Shown one piece after another: positions 1,638 through 18,208 of a DNA stretch of 18,208 nucleotides. A program made the translations under genes and the position numbers. The stretch lies in IMG/VR virus record IMGVR_UViG_2879754190_000001; one strand, given 5' to 3'. Source of the stretch: a virus. Its lineage: Duplodnaviria > Heunggongvirae > Uroviricota > Caudoviricetes. Positions within the stretch are counted from its first letter, which is position 1, and every line of letters begins with the position of its first letter. The notes below the pieces were generated by a model. The model did not search any database, was not told the origin of the DNA, and was given only the letters and a program-made list of their open reading frames with translations.

Positions 1638-1709
1638 TGAAGTGGCACACTGAATTTGGCCACCTGAACAGAGGTGATATGCTCACCTCAGAACAACACA
1701 GGTGCTCCA

Positions 1710-1904
1710 ATGAAAAAAAGAAATTTTAGCGCAGAGTTTAAACGCGAATCCGCTCAACTGGTTGTTGACCAGAAATACACGGTGGCAGATGCCGCCAAAG
1801 CTATGGATGTTGGCCTTTCCACAATGACAAGATGGGGCAAACAACTGCGTGATGAGCGTCAGGGCAAAACACCAAAAGCCTCCCCATTACCCGGAACAAA
1901 TTGA
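1710..1904 (+). pseudogene. IS911 orfA (OrfA/InsN-like), frameshifted by 1-nt deletions; slippery heptamer reduced from A6G to A5G at 1959-1964
   Basis: [59 protein letters not shown] then premature stop; the remaining OrfA sequence [21 protein letters not shown] is readable in the +1 frame from 1900. Confidence 0.8.
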
Positions 1905-2004
1905 AATCCGTGAGCTCAGGAAAAAGCTACAACGCATTGAAATGGAGAATGAAATATTAAAAAGGCTACCGCGCTCTTGATGTCAGACTCCTGAACAGTT
2001 CTCG

Positions 2005-2394
2005 ATAATCGGGAAACTCAGAGCGCATTATCCTGTGGTCACACTCTGCCATGTGTTCGGGGTTCATCGCAGCAGCTACAGATACTGGAAAAACCGTCCT
2101 GAAAACCAGACGGCAGACGGGCTGTATTACGCAGTCAGGTACTTGAGCTACATGGCATCAGCCACGGTTCGGCCGGAGCAAGAAGCATCGCCACAATGGC
2201 AACCCGGAGAGGCTACCAGATGGGACGCTGGCTTGCTGGCAGGCTCATGAAAGAGCTGGGGCTGGTCAGCTGTCAGCAGCCGACTCACCGGTATAAACGT
2301 GGTGGTCATGAACATGTTGCTATCCCTAACTACCTTGAAAGGCAGTTCGCCGTGACCGAACCAAATCAGGTGTGGTGCGGTGATGTGACCTATA
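2005..2394 (+). pseudogene. IS911 orfB, 5' portion (exon 1 relative to the intron), containing one further frameshift near 2115-2119
   Basis: [33 protein letters not shown] (frame 1) then ...[66 protein letters not shown] (frame 0), ending exactly at the intron 5' junction. Confidence 0.75.
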
Positions 2395-3062
2395 GTGTGC
2401 CCGGAGTTCAGGGCGGGCATGGATGCTTAAATGAACCGCGAGTCTGTCTGGAATATTGAACCGGTAACTCACGATGAGAAACCCAACAATCCCACCGGGT
2501 GTGACGGTGGAGAACCTGAGCGGCAGTGACCTGCGGCATGCCCGCAGGGTGATGTAACCCGCTGACAACGGGGATTGAGGCGAGATCACTAAGCCGAGAT
2601 GATCCTCAAGGTTAAGTACTGAAAGGCTGAAGAACATGAACCCGTTAATCCGCCTCTGTGGGTTGAAAACGTCACCACGGCCTACGTGATCTGACAGGCC
2701 GTGCAGGAGGAACTGGCAGTGATACGTAAGCACTGCCGGTCGAAGGTGTTTTGACATGTATGCGAAACACCGGGGCAGCAGCGTCTATCACACTTGCGTT
2801 GCTGACTTCTGCCAACTTGCGGCAAGCAAGGATAAAGAGTGCGACGGGCAGCCTCCTCAGTATGCCTGAGTCCGGCAGGTAAACCGGGAAGGTCAGCGAC
2901 GGATGTTAAGGGGCATGGCTCCGATGACGCGCTGGCTGGCGGAGCTTCCGTAGTAGTCCGCGATGGGGAAAGCCCATTACATGGCGAAGGGAAGCAGTTT
3001 GAATGTGTTTGCGACGTGAATTAACTGACCTAACGAGGTGAAGACCTTTGATAATCAGCGAA

Positions 3063-4570
3063 ATGCAACGCAAGCTTGCCACATGGGCAGCCACCGATCC
3101 GTCCCTACGGATTCAACGGCTGCTGCGTCTGATAACACAACCAGAATGGCTGGCTGAAGCGGCGCGGATCACGCTTTCATCAAAGGGGGCCCATACCCCC
3201 GGCGTTGATGGCGTGAACAAAACAATGCTACAGGCCAGACTGGCTGTTGAGCTGCAAATCCTCAGGGATGAATTACTCTCAGGCCACTACCAGCCCTTGC
3301 CCGCCAGACGGGTTTACATCCCTAAAAGCAACGGCAAACTGCGACCACTGGGTATCCCCGCGTTGCGGGATCGTATTGTTCAGCGGGCCATGCTGATGGC
3401 GATGGAGCCGATATGGGAGAGTGATTTTCATACGCTCTCATATGGCTTCCGGCCTGAGCGCAGTGTCCACCACGCGATCCGCACGGTGAAATTACAGCTC
3501 ACAGACTGTGGTGAAACCCGGGGACGCTGGGTGATTGAAGGCGACCTGTCCAGTTACTTCGACACCGTACATCATCGACTGCTGATGAAGGCTGTACGCC
3601 GCAGGATCAGTGACGCACGTTTCATGACTCTGCTGTGGAAAACCATCAAGGCGGGACATATCGATGTCGGTCTCTTTCGGGCGGCCAGTGAAGGTGTGCC
3701 ACAGGGCGGTGTTATATCGCCGCTATTATCGAACATCATGCTGAATGAGTTCGATCAATACCTGCATGAGCGCTACCTGAGCGGGAAAGCCAGAAAAGAT
3801 CGGTGGTACTGGAATAACAGTATCCAACGGGGCCGAAGTACGGCGGTCAGAGAAACTGGCAGTGGAAACCCGCGGTGGCGTACTGCCGCTATGCCGATGA
3901 TTTTGTCCTCATCGTCAAAGGCACCAAAGCACAGGCGGAAGCCATCAGGGAGGAGTGTCGGGGTGTGCTCGAAGGCAGTCTGAAACTCAGGCTGAACATG
4001 GATAAGACTAAAATCACCCATGTTAATGACGGCTTTATCTTTCTGGGGCACAGGATCATTCGCAAACGCAGTCGTTATGGCGAGATGCGAGTGGTCTCAA
4101 CGATCCCGCAGGAGAAAGCCAGAAACTTCGCCGCATCGCTGACAGCACTGTTATCAGGCAACTACAGTGAAAGCAAAGTCGATATGGCTGAACAACTCAA
4201 CCGAAAACTGAAAGGCTGGGCCATGTTCTATCAGTTCGTTGATTTTAAGGCCAAAGTCTTCAGTTATATCGACCGTGTCGTGTTCTGGAAGCTGGCTCAC
4301 TGGCTGGCCCGCAAATACCGTACAGGTATCGCTTCCCTGATGAGGTGGTGGTGTAAATCACCGAAACCGGGTCAGAGCAAAACGTGGGTTTTATTTGGTA
4401 AAACCAATCACGGCAAGCTCAGCGGCGAAATACTGTACCGGTTGGTGGGGCAAGGCAAGAAGCTGTTCCGCTGGCGGCTACCCGAAGGTAATCCCTATCT
4501 GAGGACGGAGACCAGAACACGTATACATCGCGCTTTACAGAAGTGGCAATGGCGTTCGCCAGGCATTTAA
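3063..4570 (+). pseudogene. Group II intron-encoded reverse transcriptase/maturase, split by a frameshift near 3850-3860; no HNH endonuclease motif seen
   Basis: RT motifs GVDGV, RRVYIPKSNGKLRPLGIPALRDRIVQ, SYGFRPERS, GDLSSYFDTV and GVPQGGVISPLLSNIMLNEFD in one frame; YADDFVL, LNMDKTKITHV, GFIFLGHRI and the maturase-like C-terminus in the -1 frame. Confidence 0.8.
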
Positions 4571-4575
4571 ATGGA

Positions 4576-4609
4576 GAGCCGGATGCGCTGAAAGGTGCAC
4601 GTCCGGTTC
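4576..4609 (+). other. Group II intron catalytic domain V hairpin (part of the ribozyme RNA)
   Basis: GAGCCGGATGCGCT-GAAA-GGTGCACGTCCGGTTC: 34 nt, AGC catalytic triad near the base, GAAA tetraloop, close to the domain V consensus; sits about 50 nt from the intron 3' end. Confidence 0.75.
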
Positions 4610-4631
4610 GGGGAGGAGAGCAGGGAAATAG

Positions 4632-5138
<507 letters not shown>

Positions 5139-5146
5139 CCACTTCA

Positions 5147-6115
5147 CCTTTCTTTCCGAACCTTGTTGATCACCTTCTGGTTAAGCATCACACGGCTGAT
5201 GGCGTTGAAGATGGCATTTCAATCTGCTACTTCAAGCCATACTCGCAAGGCCGTGCTCGCTGGCAGGGTGACACAATCCACGGCGTGTGGTTTGACGAAG
5301 AGCCACCATACAGCATTTATGGCGAAGGTCTTACCCGTACCAACAAATACGGGCAATTCTCAATTCTGACGTTTACCCCGCTGATGGGGATGTCTGACGT
5401 TGTTACCAAGTTCCTGAAGAACCCCAGCAAGTCGCAGAAAGTGGTCAACATGACCATCTATGACGCTGAGCACTATACCGACGAGCAGAAAGAGCAAATC
5501 ATCGCATCATATCCCGAGCATGAGAGAGAGGCGCGTGCTCGCGGTATTCCTACGATGGGTAGTGGTCGAATCTTCCAGATACCGGAAGAGACGATTAAGT
5601 GTCAGCCGTTCGAGTGTCCTGATCACTTCTACGTAATTGGCGGGATGGATTTCGGATGGGATCACCCACAGGCGCAAGTTCAGCTTTGGTGGGATAAGGA
5701 GGCAGACACAATCTACGTTTCACGCGTGTGGAAGGCGAAAGAAAAAACAGCCGTTCAGGCGTGGGGAGCCGTTAAATCATGGGCGCATAAAGTGCCAACC
5801 GCATGGCCTCATGATGGAAACCAGCACGAGAAGGGCGGCGGTGAGCAGCTCAAAGGGCAGTATGCAGACGCTGGATTTATGATGTTGCAGGAGCATGCGA
5901 CATGGCCTGATGGCGGTAACGCTGTTGAGCCAGGCATCACTGAATTGCGCGACATGATGCTCGATGGTCGCTTCAAAGTATTCAATACCTGTGAGCCATT
6001 CTTTGAGGAGTTCCGCCTCTATCACCGTGATGAAAACGGGAAAATCGTCAAGCTTAACGACGACGTGCTATCCGCCGTTCGCTATGCATACATGATGCGC
6101 CGCTTCGCAAAATGA
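5147..6115 (+). pseudogene. P22-like terminase large subunit (gene 2 equivalent), C-terminal about 322 codons only; the N-terminal ATPase region is missing, replaced by IS911
   Basis: Open frame begins exactly at the IS911 right end; the terminase assignment rests mainly on its position immediately upstream of the portal gene (gene order 2-1-8-5), with VIGGMDFGWDHP consistent with a nuclease-type acidic motif. P22 gp2 is about 499 aa. Confidence 0.75.
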
Positions 6116-6186
6116 TGCGCGACATCAAAAAACCAAAAGAGAAAAAGATACCAGCCCCAATCAGGCCCATCGCACGGAGAACTTAA

Positions 6187-8352
6187 ATGGCCGACGAAAA
6201 CAGACTCAATTCCATTCTGTGTAAGTTTGACGCAGACTGGATGGCGAGCGATGAAGCCAGAACCGAGGCGACAAATGACCTGTATTTTAGCCGAGTGTCG
6301 CAATGGGATGACTGGCTATCAAACTACACTACCCTGCAATATCGCGGACAATTCGATGTTGTTCGCCCGGAGGTCAGGAAACTGGTCGCAGAGATGCGCC
6401 GGAACCCTGTCGACGTTCTCTTCCGACCCAAAGACGGCGCTAATCCTGATGCAGCCGATGTATTGATGGGGATGTATCGTACTGATATGCGCCATAACAC
6501 GGCAAAGATTGCCGTTAACGTTGGCGTTCGTGAGCAGATAGAGTCAGGCGTTGGTGCATGGCGTCTGGTCACGCAGTACGAAGACAACGATCCAACAAGC
6601 AACAATCAGGTAATCCGACGCCTGCCAATCCATGAAGCCTGCTCACACGTCATATGGGACGCCAACAGCAAGCAGATGGATAAGAGCGACGCTAAGCACT
6701 GCACGGTGATTAACGCCTTGTCGCGCAATGGCTGGAAAGAGTTCGCAGAGGATTACGGTATTGACCCGGATACCCTGCCATCTTTCCAGAATCCTAACGA
6801 TACATGGCTATTCCCGTGGGTGTCGAATGATGTCGTCTACGTCGCTGAGTATTACGAGGTAGAAGAGGAGAAGGAGAAGGTCTTCATCTACCGCGACCCG
6901 CTGACAGGTGAGCCGGTCAGCTATTACCAGCAGGATATCAAAGACGTCATCGACGACCTGGCTAATCGTGGATTCATTAAGGTAGCAGAGCGCAAGGTGA
7001 AGCGTCGGCGTGTGTATAAGTCGATCATCACCTGTACGCAGATACTGAAAGACCGCGAGAAGATAGCCGGAGAGCATATTCCAATCGTTCCAGTGTATGG
7101 CGAATGGTCATTCGCTGGTGACAAGGAGTGCTACGAGGGTGTGGTAAGGCTGACGAAAGACGGTCAACGCCTTCGTAACATGATTATGTCGTTCAACGCC
7201 GATATTGTTGCTCGGTCACCGAAGAAGAAACCGACCTTCTTCCCTGAGCAAATCGAAGGCTACGAATACATGTACGGCGGAAATGATGACTATCCGTACT
7301 ATCTGCAGAACAGGACTGATGAAAACGGTAACGACCTGCCGATTGGTCCAATCTCCTACATGGAAAACCCTGAAGTGCCGCAAGCCAACGCTTACATGCT
7401 TGAGGCTGCCACCAACGCAGTGAAAGAAGTGGCTAGTCTTGGCGTGGATGCGCAGGCGGCAAATGGTCAGGTCGCTTTTGATACCGTCAATCAACTGAAC
7501 ATGCGGGCAGACCTTGAGACATACGTGTTTCAGGATAACCTGGCTACCGCAATGCGACGTGATGGCGAGATTTATGCCTCAATGGTCAACGATATTTATG
7601 ACGTTCCTCGTCATGTAACGCTGACACTTGAAGATGGAAGCGAGAAAGACGTTCAACTCTATGCGCAAGTTGTCGATTACCAGTCCGGCAATGTGGTCAC
7701 ACTCAACGACATTCGCGGTCGATATGAGTGCTATACAGACGTTGGGCCATCCTTCCAGAGTATGAAGGAACAGAACCGCGCAGAGATTCAGGAGTTGCTC
7801 ACCAAGGTTCCGCAAGGTACTCCAGAGTTCCAGATGCTGATGCTGCAATACTTCACGCTGCTTGACGGTAAAGGCGTCGAGATGATGCGAGAGTACGCGA
7901 ACAAGCAACTGGTGATGATGGGGCTGAAGAAACCAGAAACACCTGAAGAGATGGAGATGGTGCAGCAGGCACAACAACAGCCGCAGCAGCCATCAGCAGA
8001 GCAAATTCAGGCGCAGGGTATCCTTCTGCAAGGTCAGGCTGAATTGCTCAAGGCAGAGAACCAACAGGCGCAGATTCAGGTTGAAGCTGCCAAGGTTGAA
8101 GCCCAAAACCAACTCAACGCCGCGAAGATTGCAGAAATATTCAACAATATGGACCTCGACAAGCAGGCAGAACTGCGTGAGTACCTCAGGCTCGTAGGTC
8201 AATTCCAGCAACAGCGCAGCAAAGATGCTCGTGCTAACGCTGAGCTGCTTCTTAAAGATGCAGACCAGACTCATTCACAACGCATGGATTTCGCGAATCT
8301 TATGCGTCAAGTTCAAATCCCCTCCGGCGGAGTAGCCGAGACACCTCAATAA
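6187..8352 (+). CDS. Portal protein, P22 gp1 family (721 aa)
   Basis: Near-colinear similarity to the P22 portal as I recall it (MADENRL...[12 protein letters not shown]...[12 protein letters not shown]...[23 protein letters not shown]...[15 protein letters not shown]...NAELLLK...VAETPQ); GGAG RBS 8 nt upstream. Confidence 0.95.
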
Positions 8353-8365
8353 GAGAGAGTTAATC

Positions 8366-9277
8366 ATGGACCAAACCACCGACATTCAGGCTTCTGAAGA
8401 ATTAACCCTGCCCGGCAATCATGCAGCGGCATCTGCTGATGGCTTAGTTGTCGATAATGCCAACGACAGCGCAGGTCAGGAAGAAGGCTTTGAGATTGTC
8501 CGGAAAGACGATGAGAAACCAAAACAAGACCCGGCAACTAATGCTGAATTTGCCCGTCGCCGCATCGAACGCAAACGCCAGCGTGAGCTTGAGCAGCAGA
8601 TGGAAGCGGTTAAGCGTGGAGAGTTGCCGGAGCACCTGCGGGTGAACCCTGAGTTACCAAAACAACCAGACCCTAACGATTATCTTTCCGAAGATGCACT
8701 GGCTAAGTACGACTATGACCAGAGCCGCGCACTGGCTGCCTTCCAGCAGGCAAACAGTGAATGGCAGATCAAGGCTATGGACGCACGAAGCCAGGCTGTC
8801 GCCGAGCAGGGTCGCAAAACTCAGGAGTTCACCCAGCAATCAGCGCAATACGTCGAGGCGGCCCGTAAGCACTACGAGGCAGCGGAAAAGCTCAATATCC
8901 CTGACTATCAGGAGAAAGAGGATGCATTCATGCAACTGGTGCCGCCAGCAGTCGGTGCCGACATCATGCGCCTCTTCCCGGAGAAATCCGCCGCTCTCAT
9001 GTATCACCTTGGTGCTAATCCTGAGAAAACACGCCAGTTGCTGGCGATGGACGGGCAATCCGCGCTGATTGAACTCACTCGACTGTCAGAACGTTTAACT
9101 CTCAAGCCTCGAGCCAAGCCTGTTTCAGAAGCCCCGTTACCTGATGAACCCATTCAGGGACATGCTGTTGCTGCAAATATCTCTGCGATTGAAAAGCAGA
9201 TGGAGGCGGCAGCAAACAAAGGGGATGTAGAGACGTACCGCAAGCTCAAGGCGCAACTGAATAAAGGAATTCGATAA
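8366..9277 (+). CDS. Scaffolding protein, P22 gp8-like (303 aa)
   Basis: Position between portal and coat; same length as P22 gp8 (303 aa); charged, helix-rich composition; stop overlaps the coat start (TAATG). Confidence 0.8.
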
Positions 9278-10572
9278 TGGCATTAAATGAAGGTCAACTG
9301 GTCACGTATGCTCTGGATGAAATCATCGGAACCGTCCAGAACCTGACGCCAATGGCGTCAAAAGTGACAAAATACCCCCCTCCGGCAGAATCCATGCAGC
9401 GTTCAAGCAACACCGTGTGGATGCCTGTTGAGCAGGAAGCGCCAACCCAGACTGGCTGGGATTTAACTGGCAACGCAACCGGGATTCTGGAACTCTCCGT
9501 GAAGTGCAACATGGGCGATCCGGATAACGATTTCTTCGAGCTTCGTGCAGATGACCTGCGTGATGAGCGTTCTTACCGTCGCCGCATCCAGGCATCCGCC
9601 AAAAAACTGGCGAATAACATTGAGTCAGCGATTGCCAAACAGGCAACTGAAATGGGCTCGCTTGTTGTTCACGATACCCGCGCAATTGGTCCATCGACTG
9701 GCCTGCCTGGCTGGGATTTTGTGTCTGATGCAGAGCGACTGATGTTCTCCCGTGAGCTAAACCGCGACATGGGCATCAGTTACTTCCTGAACCCTGACGA
9801 TTACCGCAAAGCAGGCCGCAACCTGGTAGATGGTGACATCTTCGGGCGCGTTCCTGAAGAAGCATATCGAAACGGTACTATTCAGCGTCAGATTGCTGGC
9901 TTTGATGAAATTCTTCGCTCACCGAAACTTCCGGCAGTTACCAAGTCAACCGCGACTGGTGTAACTGTTTCTGGTGCGCAGAAGTTTAAGCCGCAGGCAT
10001 ACACCCTTGATACCGATGGTAACAAAGAGAACGTCGACAACCGTGTTGCAACGGTGACCGTATCCTCCACCACCGGATTTAAGCGCGGCGACAAAATCAG
10101 CTTCATTGGTGTGAAGTTCCTGTCTCAGATGGCGAAGAATGTGCTGACTGATGACGCGACTTTCTCAATCACCCGTGTGATCGATGGTACTCACATCGAA
10201 ATCACGCCGAAGCCGATTGCGCTGGATGACGCGTCACTGACAAAAGAAGAGAAGGCTTACGCTAACGTAAACACCTCTCTTGCTGATACCACTCCGGTAA
10301 ACGTTCTGAACGTGGCAACAACCACCGCTAACGTGTTCTGGGCTGATGACTCAATCCGCCTGCTGTCTCAGCCGATCCCGGTAACCCATGAACTGTTTGC
10401 TGGCATGAAAACGTCTTCCTTCAGCATTCCAGGTATTGGTGTTAACGGCATCTTCGCAACGCAGGGTGATATCAACACTCTGTCTGGTAAGTGCCGTATT
10501 GCTGTGTGGTATTCAGCATGTGCTGTACGACCAGAGGCAATTGGTGTTGGTCTGCCTAACCAGACCGCGTGA
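9277..10572 (+). CDS. Major capsid (coat) protein, P22 gp5-like (431 aa)
   Basis: Position and length (P22 gp5 is 430 aa); translationally coupled to the scaffold gene; followed by a strong intrinsic terminator. Confidence 0.85.
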
Positions 10573-10580
10573 TAACCAGA

Positions 10581-10604
10581 GGGAGCTTCGGCTCCCGTTT
10601 TTAT
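10581..10604 (+). terminator. Rho-independent terminator/attenuator after the coat gene
   Basis: GGGAGC-TTCG-GCTCCC perfect 6-bp GC-rich stem with a UUCG tetraloop, followed by GTTTTTAT; sits 9 nt after the coat stop codon. Confidence 0.6.
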
Positions 10605-10616
10605 CTGGAGACAAGC

Positions 10617-10841
10617 ATGACACACATGATCTTTCGTCATGGCGACATGAAGAAGTGGAAAGGCGTTGGCTACGACTTTGAAATCGTGAAAGCCGAAGAG
10701 CTTCAGGAATATCTGGATGCTGGCTGGTTTTCACATCCTGATGACCTTTTGAAGGATGTTGCAGAGCCAGAAGAAAAACAGCGTAAAAAGCCTGGTCGAA
10801 AACCTAAGGCGGCAGCAGATGAACCTGACAACGAAGGGTGA
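10617..10841 (+). CDS. Small hypothetical protein (74 aa) between coat and gp4
   Basis: ATG with GGAG 7 nt upstream, just after the terminator; [74 protein letters not shown]; overlaps the gp4 start by 23 nt in another frame. Confidence 0.35.
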
Positions 10842-11319
10842 TTTAGTTCTTGCGGCATTACGTAAGCTCGGTGTTGCATCAAATGCCACGTTAACCGATG
10901 TCGAACCGCAGTCTATGGAAGACGGCGTCAACGACCTTGAAATGATGATGGCTGAATGGCTTGGCGGTGATGCGTCACCTGGTATCAACGTTGGCTACAT
11001 TTTTGCTGATGCAGATGTTGCTCCGGATCCGGGCGATGAGCACGGTTTATCAAATAACGCTATCAATGCCGTCATTTTCAACCTTGCCTGCCGAATTGCT
11101 CCAGATTATGCGCTGGAAGCGTCTGCAAAACTTATAACCACTGCCAGATACGGGAAAGAGCGACTCGTCAAACTGTCTGCAATGGACAGGGCAAAAGCAG
11201 CTAAATGTAAGTCCGGTTATCCAAACCGTATGCCTGTTGGTAGTGGTAACCAGTTGGCGAAGTGGAATGGTTGGAATTACTTCCACCGAAAGGAACCTTG
11301 CGATAACGGGAGCGAATAA
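10819..11319 (+). CDS. Head completion / tail accessory protein, P22 gp4-like (166 aa)
   Basis: [33 protein letters not shown]...[14 protein letters not shown]...; length matches P22 gp4 (166 aa) when started at ATG 10819 rather than the upstream ATG at 10756. Confidence 0.75.
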
Positions 11320-12737
11320 TGCCTATTCAGCAACTTCCGCTTATGAAAGGTGTCGGCAAAGACTTCCGAAACGCCGACTATATCGACTATCTGCCAGTGA
11401 ATATGCTGGCTACACCCAAAGAAATCCTGAACAGCAGCGGATATCTTCGCTCATTCCCGGGCATTGCCAAACGTTCTGACGTGAACGGTGTATCTCGCGG
11501 CGTCGAGTACAACATGGCGCAGAATGCTGTTTATCGCGTGTGTGGCGGCAAGCTGTACAAAGGAGAAAGTGAAGTCGGTGATGTTGCCGGAAGTGGTCGT
11601 GTATCAATGGCGCATGGTCGGACATCACAGGCGGTAGGCGTTAATGGTCAACTGGTCGAGTATCGCTATGATGGCACGGTCAAAACCGTCTCAAACTGGC
11701 CTACAGACAGTGGATTCACTCAGTATGAGTTAGGTTCAGTTCGCGACATTACGCGCTTACGTGGGCGTTATGCGTGGTCAAAAGACGGAACTGATTCATG
11801 GTTTATCACTGACCTTGAAGACGAATCTCATCCTGACCGTTACAGCGCACAATATCGTGCCGAGTCTCAGCCTGACGGCATCATCGGTATCGGGACATGG
11901 CGAGACTTCATCGTCTGCTTTGGTTCATCGACTATTGAATATTTCTCCCTGACTGGCGCAACCACCGTTGGTGCCGCTTTGTATGTTGCACAACCATCGC
12001 TGATGGTGCAGAAAGGCATTGCCGGAACTTACTGCAAAACGCCATTCGCTGATTCGTATGCGTTTATCAGCAATCCGGCAACGGGTGCGCCGTCTGTGTA
12101 TATCATCGACTCCGGTCAGGTGTCACCAATTGCCAGCGCGAGCATTGAGAAAATCCTCCGCTCCTACACTGCTGATGAACTGGCTGATGGTGTGATGGAA
12201 TCGCTGCGATTTGATGCTCATGAGTTGCTGATTATCCACCTTCCGCGTCACGTCCTCGTGTACGACGCATCTTCAATCGCCAATGGCCCACAATGGTGTG
12301 TGCTGAAAACAGGTCTGTATGACGATGTGTACCGCGCTATCGACTTCGTTTACGAAGGCAATCAGATAACGTGCGGCGATAAGCTGGAATCTGTTACCGG
12401 GAAACTGCAATTCGATATCAGCAGCCAGTACGACAAGCAACAGGAACACCTGCTGTTTACTCCACTCTTCAAAGCGGATAACGCCAGAGTGTTCGACCTT
12501 GAGGTTGAATCGTCAACTGGCGTTGCGCAGTACGCCGACCGCCTTTTTCTCTCTGCAACCACTGACTGCATCAATTACGGGCGTGAGCAGATGATTGAGC
12601 AGAATGAACCGTTCGTTTACGACAAGCGTGTTTTGTGGAAGCGAGTAGGGCGCATCAGGAAAAATGTCGGCTTCAAATTGCGCGTTATCACGAAGTCACC
12701 TGTCACTCTGTCTGGCGCTCAGATAAGGATTGAGTAA
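11319..12737 (+). CDS. Tail accessory protein, P22 gp10-like (472 aa)
   Basis: Position after gp4; same length as P22 gp10 (472 aa); TAATG start/stop overlaps on both sides. Confidence 0.75.
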
Positions 12738-13534
12738 TGGCTGATTCGAATCTCAATGTGCCGGTAATCATCCAAGCTACGCGGCTCGATACATCAGTCC
12801 TTCCACGCAATATCTTCTCGCAGTCGTATCTGCTTTACGTTATCGCACAGGGCACTGATGTTGGTAACGTGGCTAACAAAGCCAACGAGGCCGGACAGGG
12901 CGCTTATGATGCACAGGTCAGGAACGATGAGCAGGATGTGATTCTCGCTGACCATGAGCAGCGAATTTCTGCTGCGGAAGCAACGCTTGTTAATCATGAG
13001 GAGCGAATCAGACAGGCAGAATCAACTCTTCAGGACCATGAAACACGAATAGCTCAGAATGAAAGCGATATTTCGTCGCTTGACACAAGAGTTCAGTCGC
13101 TGGAGTCGCAGGTTTCAGACCATGAAACGCGCATCGATGCTCTGGAGTATGCAACCACACGCAAGAAGTCAGAGGTTGTTTACTCTGGTGTATCTGTAAC
13201 CATCCCGACAGCGCCGACCAACCTTGTTAGCCTGCTGAAAACGCTCACACCGTCATCCGGCTCGTTGGCACCATTCTTCGACACCGTTAACAACAAGATG
13301 GTTGTGTTCAACGAGAACAAAACCCTGCTCTTCAAGTTGTCGATTGTCGGCACGTGGCCCAGCGGAACCGCCAACAGGTCAATGCAGCTAACCTTTTCCG
13401 GCTCTGTTCCTGACACACTGGTCAGCAGTCGTAATGCGGCGACAACAACCGACAACATCCTGTTAGCTACGTTCTTCAGCGTGGATAAAGACGGCTTTCT
13501 TGCCACAACCATCAAGATAATCGCGGAGCAGTGA
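12737..13534 (+). CDS. Tail needle (P22 gp26 family) with a conserved N-terminal domain, coiled-coil repeats and a divergent C-terminal domain (265 aa)
   Basis: N-terminus [43 protein letters not shown]...[20 protein letters not shown] matches the gp26 N-terminus as I recall it; central DHE.RI heptad-type repeats; the C-terminal 120 aa do not resemble P22 gp26. Confidence 0.8.
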
Positions 13535-13989
13535 TGATTACATTCAAACCAACGCGAAACATCGACCTGATAGAAGCAGTCGGAAATCACCCTGACATTA
13601 TCGCCGGGAGCAACAACGGTGATGGATACGACTACAAACCTGAATGCCGTTACTTTGAGGTGAACGTGCACGGTCAGTTTGGCGGCATTGTTTACTATCA
13701 GGAGATTCAGCCGCTGACATTAGATTGCCACGCCATGTACCTGCCAGAGATTCGCGGCTTCAGCAAGGAAATTGGGCTGGCGTTCTGGCGATACATTCTG
13801 ACTAACACCACCGTTCAGTGCGTAACATCGTTCGCTGCACGCAAATTCCGACACGGTCAGATGTACTGCGCAATGATTGGCCTTAAGCGTGTAGGAACCA
13901 TCAAGAAATACTTCAAAGGCGTGGATGACGTGACTTTTTACAGCGCCACACGCGAAGAACTAATCGACTTCCTGAATCACGGGAGATAG
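13534..13989 (+). CDS. Hypothetical protein in the P22 gp14 position (151 aa), Cys/His-containing
   Basis: ORF coupled to the tail needle stop (TGATG); [25 protein letters not shown]...KPECRYFEVNVHGQFGG...LDCHAMYLPEIRGF...; assignment by position only (P22 gp14 is 176 aa). Confidence 0.5.
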   Translation: MITFKPTRNIDLIEAVGNHPDIIAGSNNGDGYDYKPECRYFEVNVHGQFGGIVYYQEIQPLTLDCHAMYLPEIRGFSKEIGLAFWRYILTNTTVQCVTSFAARKFRHGQMYCAMIGLKRVGTIKKYFKGVDDVTFYSATREELIDFLNHGR

Positions 13990-13991
13990 CC

Positions 13992-14684
13992 ATGTTATAT
14001 GCATTTAAGCTGGGCAGAAAACTGCGCGGCGAGGAACCTTATTGCCCTGAAAAAGGCGGGAAAGGTGGCAGTTCTGATAAAAGCGCAAAGTATGCAGCAG
14101 AAGCCCAGAAGTATGCTGCAGACCTGCAAAATCAGCAGTGGCAGACGATCATGAAAAACCTTGCTCCGTTCACGCCTCTTGCGGAGCAGTATGTTAACCA
14201 GCTTCAGAACCTTTCCAGTTTAGAAGGTCAGGGGCAGGCACTTAATCAGTATTACAACTCTAAGCAGTATAAAGACCTTGCAGGGCAGGCGCGTTACCAG
14301 AGTCTTGCTGCTGCGGAGGCGACGGGTGGACTTGGTTCGACAGCCACAAGCAATCAACTGGCTACGATCGCGCCGACACTCGGTCAGTCTTGGTTATCAA
14401 ATCAGATGAGCAATTACAACAATCTGGCAAACGTTGGGCTTGGTGCGCTGCAAGGTCAGGCAAACGCCGGGCAGACGTACGCCAACAACATGAGCAGCAT
14501 TGCACAGCAAAGCGCAGCTCTTGCCGCTGCTAATGCCAATAAACCATCAAGTCTTCAGACTGCAATTAGCGGTGGCACGTCTGGTGCGATTGCCGGTGCA
14601 GGTCTTGCCAGCCTTTTGGGAACATCAACGCCTTGGGGCGCTGGTATTGGTGCTGGTATCGGATTGCTTGGCTCGTTGTTTTAA
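13992..14684 (+). CDS. Ejection (internal virion) protein, P22 gp7-like (230 aa)
   Basis: Position and length (P22 gp7 is 229 aa); Q/A/N-rich low-complexity body with a glycine-rich hydrophobic C-terminus (GAIAGAGLASLLG...GAGIGAGIGLLGSLF). Confidence 0.6.
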   Translation: MLYAFKLGRKLRGEEPYCPEKGGKGGSSDKSAKYAAEAQKYAADLQNQQWQTIMKNLAPFTPLAEQYVNQLQNLSSLEGQGQALNQYYNSKQYKDLAGQARYQSLAAAEATGGLGSTATSNQLATIAPTLGQSWLSNQMSNYNNLANVGLGALQGQANAGQTYANNMSSIAQQSAALAAANANKPSSLQTAISGGTSGAIAGAGLASLLGTSTPWGAGIGAGIGLLGSLF

Positions 14685-14693
14685 GGGGGAATC

Positions 14694-16025
14694 ATGGCTA
14701 CTTGGCAAGGAACAAACGGCGGATTGTTGGCTGGTATCGGCGGCGTCAACTCAAACGCTCCGAGCGTAAATGACATCGGCAATACGCTTCAGCTTATCAG
14801 GCAGAACAATGATATTGAGCGTTCAGGCGCTAACAATGTTGGGCTGACTGCTTTGCAAGGTCTTTCAGGTATTGCGGGTGTTTTTCAGCAGGAAAAGCAG
14901 GCTCAGCGGCAGAAAGAATTTCAGCAGGCGTACGCTAATGCTTATGCGTCTGGTGATCGCGGTGCTTTGCGTCAGTTGGCTACTCAATATCCAGACCAGA
15001 TTGAATCCGTTCGTAAAGGCATGGGATTCATTGATGAAGAGCAGCGTAATTCTATCGGCACCTTAGCGGCTGGCGCACGCCTTGCGTCATCGTCTCCAGA
15101 AGCAATGCAATCATGGCTGCAAAACAACGCCGGTGAGTTAGCTCGTGTTGGCGTTAATCCTCATGACGTCGCTCAGATGTACCAACAGAACCCGCGGCAG
15201 TTCGGCGAATTTGTCGATCACCTGGGGATGAACAGTCTCGGGCCCGAAAAATACTTTGACCTACAGGATAAAATGCAGGGTCGCCAGGTTACCATGCGCG
15301 GTCAGGATCTGGATTCGCAAACCGCCGCTCGGAATCAGGCAATCACAATGCGCGGACAAGATATCCAGGCGAATTTAGGTCAGCAGCGCATTAATCTGGA
15401 CGCAGAAACAAACCGCATTAACAACGAAAATAAGCGCCTTGACCGGATGCTATCAGCAGAAACTAACGACCTGAAGCGCCAGGAAATACAGAGCCGCATA
15501 GCAGCCAACAACCAGCAGTTGCAGCAGAAGCAGCAAGCGCTAAATGATGGCTACAAAGACGGCATCAACACCCTCACAACCAGCATGTTCACTCTGAACG
15601 ATATCGTTAGTTCTCCTTCACTTAAGAGCATTACAGGCTTACGTGGAGTAATCCCCAACGTTCCAGGCTCACAGGCTGCAGACACTCAGGCACGACTTGA
15701 TACCTTTAAATCACAAGCATACCTGACAGCGGTTCAGGCCATGCGAGGCATGGGCGCACTTTCTGATGCCGAGGGCAAAAAGCTCGACCAGGCTGTTGGT
15801 TCGCTGCAGAACTCGCAGAGCGAGGAGTCCTTTCGTCGCAACGCTGGCGTCATCCTGAACACGCTCAACCAGAAGCGTAATGAGGCGGTTGGTAAGTACG
15901 TTCAGCAAAACGGTATCAAGCGAGTGGAAGCGCCTCAGGCTTCTATAGATTACCTGAAGCAGCACCCCGAGCTGTCAATCGACTTCATTAATCGCTACGG
16001 ATATCTTCCATCTTTGGGGCAGTAA
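14694..16025 (+). CDS. Ejection protein, P22 gp20-like (443 aa)
   Basis: Position in the conserved 7-20-16 order; Q/N-rich; GGGGG RBS upstream. Confidence 0.6.
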   Translation: MATWQGTNGGLLAGIGGVNSNAPSVNDIGNTLQLIRQNNDIERSGANNVGLTALQGLSGIAGVFQQEKQAQRQKEFQQAYANAYASGDRGALRQLATQYPDQIESVRKGMGFIDEEQRNSIGTLAAGARLASSSPEAMQSWLQNNAGELARVGVNPHDVAQMYQQNPRQFGEFVDHLGMNSLGPEKYFDLQDKMQGRQVTMRGQDLDSQTAARNQAITMRGQDIQANLGQQRINLDAETNRINNENKRLDRMLSAETNDLKRQEIQSRIAANNQQLQQKQQALNDGYKDGINTLTTSMFTLNDIVSSPSLKSITGLRGVIPNVPGSQAADTQARLDTFKSQAYLTAVQAMRGMGALSDAEGKKLDQAVGSLQNSQSEESFRRNAGVILNTLNQKRNEAVGKYVQQNGIKRVEAPQASIDYLKQHPELSIDFINRYGYLPSLGQ

Positions 16026-17756
16026 ATGGCTAATTACCGTGATTTGTTAGAGCAGGCTGGCGCACGTTACGGTGTGCCAGAAGGGTTGATGACTGCACTG
16101 GGTGCCAAGGAGTCTTCTTACAACCCTGCCGCAGTAAGCTCCGCCGGGGCTGTAGGATTGACTCAGGTCATGCCTGGGACATGGCGTGATATGGGTTATA
16201 CCGATGAGCAAATGCAAAACCCCGAATATCAGGCTGACGCTGGCGCGCGCTATCTGGCAAAGATGTACCAGCAGTTTGGTAACTGGCGTGACTCTCTTCA
16301 GGCTTATCACGACGGTCCCGGCAACGTTATGAAGGCAAAGCGTGGTGAATATACGCCAGGACCTGAAGGCCGCGGTTACGTTGATGATCGCTTTGCTCAA
16401 TGGGCTGGTGACCCGGTGACAGACTCAACAGTCGAACAGCGCGCCACCTCTGCAAAGGTACATCCTCAGCAAGACCCTAACAACCCGTTTGCACAACTGG
16501 AAGTACAGTCATCCGAACAAGTATCGGCATCAGGTGTGCAGTCAGACCCAAATAATCCATTTGCTCAGATTGAGCAGCAGGCAGCCAGTCAGCAGCCACC
16601 TCAACCCGTAAGTTCTGTCGCACCGAAACCTGTTCAGCAACAAACAGTTAATCAGGCCAATAATGCACCAACACGGGAAGAACCATCATTGATGCAACAA
16701 GCTGGCGATTGGCTCACTGGTGGTCAAAGTGCAGGGCAAATTGCAGAACAGGCTGGTCGTGGTCTGGTAAACATACCATTTGACGTATTGCAGGGTGGCG
16801 CAAGTCTGATTAATGCAATCAGTCAGGGGCTTGGGGGGCCAAAAGTATTGGATGATGTTTATCGTCCAGTAGACAGACCGACAGACCCCTACGCGCAAGC
16901 TGGAGAGTCAATAGGCGGTTATCTTGTTCCTGGAGCAGGTGTAGCTGGAAACATGGTCATTGGTTCTCTCGCTGACGCGGCGAATCAACGGGGTGATTTT
17001 GCCGAAAATGCCGCTATTAATGCCGGACTTAGCATTGCTACGCATGGCCTGATAAATGGCGTTACCCGTGGTGTTCGTGGTGCATCAAATATAATTAGTG
17101 GCAATAAAACATCTGCACAGAGAGCGACCACTGCGCCAACAGAAACATCACCATTCTCCGGTGATGCCGCTGCAGCAACAAATCCTGCGGTTCATGCCGC
17201 AGAGGCAAGAGTAGCACAAGGTGTACCAATGACGCCTGCGACGAAGAACCCAGAGGAAGTCGTTCGCACAGTAGCAGCACAAAAAAGGCCAAATCTCGCT
17301 TCATCGCTTGATGAACTAGATATCAATCCTCAGGCTGAAGTTCTGGAGTCTGCTGAAAGGCTTAATGTTGATTCATTACTCCCTTCACACTTTTCCGGGA
17401 ACGAGCAATACAAGGCAGTTGAGCAAGCAATCAAGTCCCGTGCGGGTTCTGCTCTACAGGTGCAGGAAAATGAAGCAATCAGGCAGCTAGCACAGGGCGC
17501 GGGTGAGATAATTGATCGCGTTTCCGGTGCAAAAGATGCTCTTGGTATGAGCGACAAGTTTATTGATACGGTCAATGGAAGAATGTCTGCGCTGATGAAA
17601 CGAAGCGACCAGCTTTATCGCAATGTTGAAAAGGCGATGCCTGCAGGTGCAAAAATTGATGCGCCATCAACAAGGTCAATGCTCAAACAGGTGGCAGAAG
17701 ATCTTGGCGGGATGAAAAACCTTGACCCTATTGAAAAGAGAGTTGAGGTAGCCTGA
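16026..17756 (+). CDS. Ejection protein, P22 gp16-position, carrying an N-terminal lytic transglycosylase (SLT) domain (576 aa)
   Basis: N-terminal ...[34 protein letters not shown]...[14 protein letters not shown]...AYHDGPGNV has the family-1 lytic transglycosylase motif pattern (ES / GLMQ-type / AYN-like); followed by a long A/Q/G-rich region. Confidence 0.7.
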
Positions 17757-17827: not shown

Positions 17828-18208
17828 TGAACCGCCCCGGGAATCCTGGAGACTAAACTTCCTGAGAAAGAGGTAAACAGGATGACTAAAAATACTCGTT
17901 TTTCCCCCGAAGTCCGTCAACGGGCAGTCCGTATGGTTCTGGAAAGTCAGGGCGAATATGACTCACAATGGGCGACAATTTGTTCCATTGCCCCAAAGAT
18001 TGGCTGTACGCCGGAGACTCTGCGTGTCTGGGGTCGCCAGCATGAGCGGGATACCGGGGGCGGTGATGGAGGGCTCACCACCGCTGAACGTCAGCGTCTG
18101 AAAGAGCTGGAGCGTGAAAATCGTGAACTGCGCCGCAGTAACGATATCCTTCGCCAGGCTTCCGCTTATTTTGCGAAGGCGGAGTTCGACCGCCTCTGGA
18201 AAAAATGA
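17828..18208 (+). mobile_element. IS629 (IS3 family), left end plus complete orfA; the rest of the element lies beyond the window
   Basis: Left terminus TGAACCGCCCCGGGAATCCTGGAGACTAAACTTCCTGAGAAAGAGGTAAACAGG followed by an orfA matching IS629 OrfA from memory. Confidence 0.9.
17882..18208 (+). CDS. IS629 OrfA (transposase N-terminal DNA-binding protein, 108 aa)
   Basis: [108 protein letters not shown]; helix-turn-helix plus leucine-zipper-like C-terminus. Confidence 0.9.

Follow-up and report, generated by a model that had tools for sequence, protein, structure and literature searches.

Introduction

The group II intron E.c.I4 is 99% identical to S.f.I1, and its homing sites are specific positions within the transposase genes of IS3-family elements, namely IS629, IS911, ISEc16, and ISEc31 (Leclercq & Cordaux 2012, PMC3522654). 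The same study recorded that MG1655 has a fragment of E.c.I4 and that Shigella flexneri 2a strains have one full-length copy, and documented copies with disrupted ORFs in S. flexneri 2a 2457T and Escherichia coli SMS-3-5 (PMC3522654). The intron-encoded protein (IEP) of E.c.I4 belongs to bacterial class A and is among the ORFs that have no D/En region (Toro & Martinez-Abarca 2013, PMC3552965). For long-read bacterial assemblies in general, residual errors have been described as mostly homopolymer indels that lead to false frameshifts, and such indels survive alignment-based short-read polishing when they lie in repeats (Wick & Holt 2022, PMC8812927).

Here, we analyzed a stretch of 18,208 nt of DNA, referred to below as the window, in which a sequence-only reading had recognized an intron-encoded RT/maturase split by a single-nucleotide frameshift and had considered the intron probably non-autonomous. 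The window matched the chromosome of S. flexneri 2a FC906 (CP037996.1) at 18208/18208 bases. For comparison, ten S. flexneri chromosomal loci, CP037996.1 (L014) among them, were gathered by exact match to the portal protein of the window.

Results and Discussion

Identity, boundaries, and homing site of the intron

The element proved to carry a group II IEP as had been read from the sequence, with the Pfam domains RVT_1 and GIIM found across its two halves in the window. The orthologous S. flexneri locus L007 contains the same IS911 without interruption, and the intron breakpoints were taken from it. The intron and its ribozyme core were located as follows.

2395–4659, + strand: full-length copy of E.c.I4/S.f.I1, a group II intron of bacterial class A, with breakpoints set against the orthologous L007 IS911, which is uninterrupted
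4574–4659, + strand: ribozyme domains V–VI (Rfam RF00029 matched over the whole model at 64.9 bits; gathering score, 40)

The intron ends, GTGTG at 2395 on the 5′ side and ...CTAC up to 4659 on the 3′ side, fit the group II rule (5′ GUGYG, 3′ AY), and the intron spans 2265 nt in the window versus 2270 nt in intact copies. It lies inside IS911 (1639–5146) and interrupts the orfB transposase between ...GDVTY and IWTGK.... This intron junction within IS911 is shared with two E. coli loci (L005 and L001). To the left of the IS911 inverted repeat we observed an 18-bp stretch, TTACCTTTGTTGCAATGA (1620–1638), that is absent at the orthologous L007 junction.

When 5,426 complete E. coli genomes were searched by megablast, the 2.3-kb region was found at 99% identity or more in thousands of places, and full-length copies of the intron were present in about 1,870 of the genomes. 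These copies are annotated as ltrA (group II intron reverse transcriptase/maturase) with IS3-family transposase fragments on their flanks, and the window intron is 99.4–99.7% identical to them over 2.3 kb. The K-12 fragment ykfC (MG1655/BW25113), a truncation, matched 76% of the intron query. Judged by its near-identity to the E. coli copies together with the descriptions in the literature, we identify the window intron as the already known E.c.I4/S.f.I1.

The intron was absent from all 9 other S. flexneri loci sampled, and the orthologous IS911 is uninterrupted in three of them (L007, L011, and L015). Because the other sampled S. flexneri loci do not carry it, the insertion would be young, and it is probably strain-specific and the product of recent retrohoming. 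FC906 thus appears to carry E.c.I4 in an IS911 copy that lacks the intron in the other sampled S. flexneri genomes, in agreement with recent retrohoming in a species described as offering many free homing sites.

The frameshift in the IEP reading frame

The IEP ORF is distributed over two frames, and its parts and lesions are listed below.

3063–3852, + strand: upstream part of the IEP ORF, codons 1–263, RT0–RT4 (Pfam RVT_1 profile positions 1–145; ORF list)
3853–3855, + strand: frameshift site, AAA in the window versus AAAA in every other copy examined
3856–4570, + strand: downstream part of the IEP ORF in the −1 frame, with RT5 (YADD), RT6–7, and the maturase X domain (Pfam RVT_1 profile positions 147–205 and GIIM)
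4515–4562, + strand: two late ORF indels seen in the alignment, one shortening AAA to AA after 4515 and the other adding a G at 4561/4562

From the ATG at 3063 the ORF reads ...GVPQGGVISPLLSNIML...RGRSTAVRE, beyond which it is out of frame and meets a stop at 3983, and the continuation in the −1 frame, ...NWQWKPAVAYCRYADDFVLIV..., ends at 4570. The frame break between RT4 and RT5 that had been read from the sequence was reproduced by the division of the RVT_1 profile between the two frames. In a nucleotide-level alignment of the window with two intact copies, the lesion was placed at 3853–3855 as a 1-nt deletion, within the A-run at about 3851–3856 proposed earlier. The sequence-only reading was therefore right that an A is missing in the deposited sequence, and it fell short in taking this for the single lesion: six further 1-nt indels were found, two in the ORF and four in the ribozyme. 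The two late ORF indels jointly rewrite the last 17 residues and keep the length.

Intact copies encode a 502-aa protein (e.g., WP_001189111.1 in NCTC9080), and the intact homologue scored 341 bits on the NCBIfam equivalog TIGR04416 (cut-off 300). Reversing the three ORF indels in silico restored 502 aa with 100% identity to WP_001189111.1 and to the ORF of the S. flexneri SFBU1023 copy (L146). Intact homologues span the junction without a shift in thousands of copies, which counts against the earlier reading of the intron as non-autonomous. The observation that the C-terminus has no HNH endonuclease held, and it extends to the intact 502-aa protein, in which a search for an HNH/En domain at E≤1 returned only RVT_1 and GIIM. 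Since the IEP is of class A without an En domain, the missing HNH is normal for this intron and is not a sign of decay.

Private indels in the intron and in neighboring IS elements

Differences of the same kind were found to the left of the intron. The remaining indels, and the part of IS911 that is free of them, are listed below.

1–1296, + strand: IS2 copy whose transposase ORF is split by private indels at 396, 749, and 787
1639–2394, + strand: left part of IS911 (5′ exon), with four private 1-nt deletions after 1885, 1889, 1989, and 2101 (versus L007)
2873–2913, + strand: three 1-nt deletions in the 5′ part of the ribozyme, CCAGG to CCGG after 2873, G4 to G3 after 2885, and G5 to G4 after 2909 (alignment)
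4619, + strand: 1-nt deletion in domain VI, GG to G after 4619 (alignment)
4660–5146, + strand: right part of IS911 (3′ exon), with no differences versus the orthologous copy

The private indels between 396 and 4619 total 14, of which 13 are deletions and about nine lie in homopolymer runs. At the IS2 site 396 a substitution accompanies the deletion, and at 749 a G is lost from CAGCGATGG, which is not a homopolymer change.

Two of the intron indels fall at the Dcm motif CCWGG: the central A of CCAGG is lost at 2873, and the extra G at 4561–4562 makes a CCAGG. Nanopore basecallers of the R9 era made systematic errors at Dcm sites. Within IS911, the heptamer for programmed −1 frameshifting, A AAA AAG, reads A5G at 1954–1958 (TTAAAAAGG) in the window versus A6 in the orthologous S. 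flexneri copy. The A5 allele also occurs in one E. coli copy (L005) and may be natural or an error; if it is real, synthesis of OrfAB would be abolished.

We then compared the intron with its closest relatives. Against the S. flexneri SFBU1023 copy (L146), which encodes an intact 502-aa protein, and against two metagenome contigs, the window intron showed 0 mismatches and exactly 7 gaps over 2265 nt. Exactly 7 gap columns were also obtained with 78 of 91 full-length copies, and the only two positions at which the window intron differs from L001 by substitution are natural variants that other copies share. Under natural decay, the combination of 7 private indels with 0 private substitutions has P<1e-6, on the assumption that indels make up about 10% of natural mutations. 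Once the indels are set aside, the intron is donor-like, identical to intact copies as expected of a young copy.

The window alleles themselves were hardly seen elsewhere. Among 131 independent loci, none of the seven was found except G4 at 2909, which occurred in one locus. For the AAA allele, a 61-nt query across the site was matched at 99% or more at none of the 4,442 places found in 2,190 E. coli genomes. The corresponding AAA 26-mer had 0 matches in metagenome contigs and in species-representative genome contigs, versus at least 120 and 11 matches, respectively, for the AAAA 27-mer. At the protein level, the junction STAVRETGSG was not found in any protein of a set of 5.8 billion. The truncated 306-aa product had no exact protein record, a result that is uninformative for NCBI, whose pseudogenes get no protein entry.

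Other disrupted forms of the IEP ORF were encountered in the protein search. Look-alikes of 306 aa with the same out-of-frame tail turned out to be a different allele, in which the shift occurs about 20 codons earlier (SGK/PEKIGG). This allele was present in at least five entries (P0001 and P0123–P0126, from NCBI and Logan assemblies), with its shift at about window positions 3785–3795 in the A-rich tract GGGAAAGCCAGAAAAG, and it could be natural or a recurrent homopolymer error. In addition, an IEP relative of 89% identity (P0127/P0128) is truncated at ...RGRSTAVSKN*, within two codons of the window frameshift site, and this form is found on more than 500 E. coli contigs. The truncation of this diverged copy probably stems from a nonsense change of TGG to TGA.

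Confinement of the indels to repeats

The intron-bearing IS911 copy lies in a P22/Sf6-like prophage remnant. In this remnant, the portal, scaffold, coat, gp4, gp10, needle, ejection protein, and gp16 genes (6187–17756) are all intact ORFs. Compared with L007, the window showed 0 substitutions over 8.85 kb of phage DNA, and in IS2 and the left part of IS911 it showed the 7 further private 1–2-nt deletions. The density of private indels was 14 in 4,224 nt (3.3/kb) in the repeat stretch versus 1 in 17,879 nt (0.056/kb) in unique flanks (Fisher p=1e-9). Homopolymer density is alike in the indel-rich stretch and the flanks, and each of the 14 indels is 247 nt or more away from the edge of the repeat that contains it.

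The sole private indel outside the repeats is a change from A5 to A4 after 6108, which alters the last codons of the P22/Sf6-like terminase large-subunit gene (5147–6186). The 5′ end of this gene was removed by IS911, and its product matches Pfam Terminase_6N from profile position 68 onward. At 10761 the 6-bp unit CAGAGC differs in copy number without a change of frame, and we regard this difference as natural because three other S. flexneri genomes have it in common. The tail-needle gene (12737–13534) encodes 265 aa in the window versus 282 aa elsewhere among the S. flexneri loci, and a recombination boundary appears to lie near 13495.

Origin of the frameshift

The FC906 genome was sequenced with MinION R9 1D reads (Albacore 2.0.1) and 400-bp IonTorrent PGM reads, assembled as a hybrid with Unicycler 0.4.7, and polished with Pilon (PMC6836418). 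Its authors described the result in their own words as having an "acceptable error rate," thereby conceding residual error, and reported 735 pseudogenes (PMC6836418). This number is not decisive between artefact and decay, because Shigella is naturally rich in pseudogenes.

Weighing the assembled sequences and their comparisons, we consider it very probable that the frameshift arose through faulty base calling or consensus building in the deposited assembly and not through mutation of the bacterium. The copy that FC906 really carries is probably an intact intron that retrohomed recently. IS2, a 340-bp spacer, IS911, and the intron would together form a run of multi-copy repeats in which short reads could not be placed uniquely; as a consequence of this, the stretch from IS2 to the intron would have stayed essentially unpolished long-read consensus. 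Such consensus typically keeps deletion-biased errors in homopolymer length. The indels would also lie beyond the reach of most 400-bp reads anchored outside. If, as we assume, the intron is multi-copy in FC906, its interior may have been left unfixed by Pilon for that reason; alternatively, the homopolymer errors of IonTorrent itself may have left it so.

The main competing explanation is that the frameshift is genuine, possibly along with the other indels, so that FC906 would carry a pseudogenised, non-autonomous E.c.I4 that splices or moves only with an IEP supplied in trans, as the sequence-only reading had proposed. The deposited sequence does show the frameshift, natural copies with disrupted ORFs exist in S. 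flexneri 2a 2457T and E. coli SMS-3-5 (PMC3522654), other frameshift alleles of the IEP ORF occur in public assemblies, and Shigella genomes are pseudogene-rich (PMC6836418). We nevertheless regard a genuine mutation as unlikely, and the degenerate intron of that reading as probably wrong. The spectrum of 7 private indels without a private substitution in 2265 nt would be improbable under decay (P<1e-6 at the assumed indel share of about 10%), and a young, strain-specific insertion would have had no time to collect seven natural indels. Moreover, the private indels reach into IS2 and IS911 and spare the 17.9 kb of unique flanks, the window alleles are unseen elsewhere apart from G4 at 2909 in 1 of 131 loci, and the combination of MinION R9 and IonTorrent is a technology prone to exactly such errors. 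Against an assembly error stand the events that are not homopolymer changes (396, 749, and the insertion at 4561/4562), the recurrence of the other frameshift allele, SGKPEKIGG, in several assemblies, and the natural disrupted-ORF copies of E.c.I4 such as the SHI-1 copy of 2457T (PMC3522654), which might share the AAA allele.

Explanations that invoke a special biological process fared less well. A slippage-prone process, either a mutator deficient in mismatch repair or error-prone reverse transcription during retrohoming, would account for deletion-biased homopolymer indels, which resemble the spectrum of mismatch-repair deficiency, and the intron is itself copied by an RT. In a mutator, however, unique DNA should suffer too, and the 17.9 kb of flanks, where homopolymers are equally dense, show 1 indel and 0 transitions; errors of the RT would leave unexplained why IS2 and the left part of IS911, neither of which is reverse-transcribed, have indels as well. 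We therefore hold such a process to be extremely improbable. Programmed −1 ribosomal frameshifting, by which the two frames would be joined and the protein made anyway, agrees with the −1 frame of the downstream part and with the A-rich junction GAGAAAC. It has a next to negligible probability in our judgment, given that no slippery heptamer of the form X XXY YYZ is present at 3846–3856 and that every other copy examined has AAAA and a single continuous ORF, so that the split is not conserved. Finally, all 14 private indels might be real and the product of a localized, deletion-biased, substitution-free process within about 4.2 kb of repeats, for which slippage during recombination or repair between IS copies would be a candidate. 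We rate this as very improbable; if it were so, three mobile elements, the E.c.I4 copy and two IS elements, would have been inactivated at once.

With an assembly error as the preferred explanation, frameshifts in IS elements, introns, and other repeats of CP037996 and of similar early nanopore/IonTorrent hybrids should not be taken as pseudogenisation, and counts of "partial" IS elements and pseudogenes from such records are likely inflated. In two E. coli records that are labeled "complete genomes" and serve as species representatives (L137 and L136; CP178302.1 and CP178308.1), we observed 12–31 gaps over about 1.3–2.3 kb of the intron, which suggests similar indel noise in this repeat in other public long-read assemblies.

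Comparison with known systems

The pattern in the window resembles the residual errors of hybrid assemblies described with Polypolish (PMC8812927), in that its indels affect homopolymer length, are biased toward deletions, lie in IS-type repeats, and persist after Pilon-type polishing. It differs in that the short reads of FC906 were IonTorrent and not Illumina reads, which adds a homopolymer problem of its own. With the naturally disrupted copies of E.c.I4 (2457T, SMS-3-5, and ykfC of K-12), the window copy shares the family and an IEP gene that is non-functional as deposited. In contrast to ykfC, which is truncated, the window copy is full-length and carries only point indels without substitutional divergence. 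The biological weight of the locus is small, as it presents a well-described intron in a standard IS911 target. It agrees with E.c.I4/S.f.I1 in its homing site within IS911, in an IEP with RT and X domains and without D/En, and in its match to ykfC, and it differs only in its genomic location and in seven 1-nt indels that are private to the deposited sequence.
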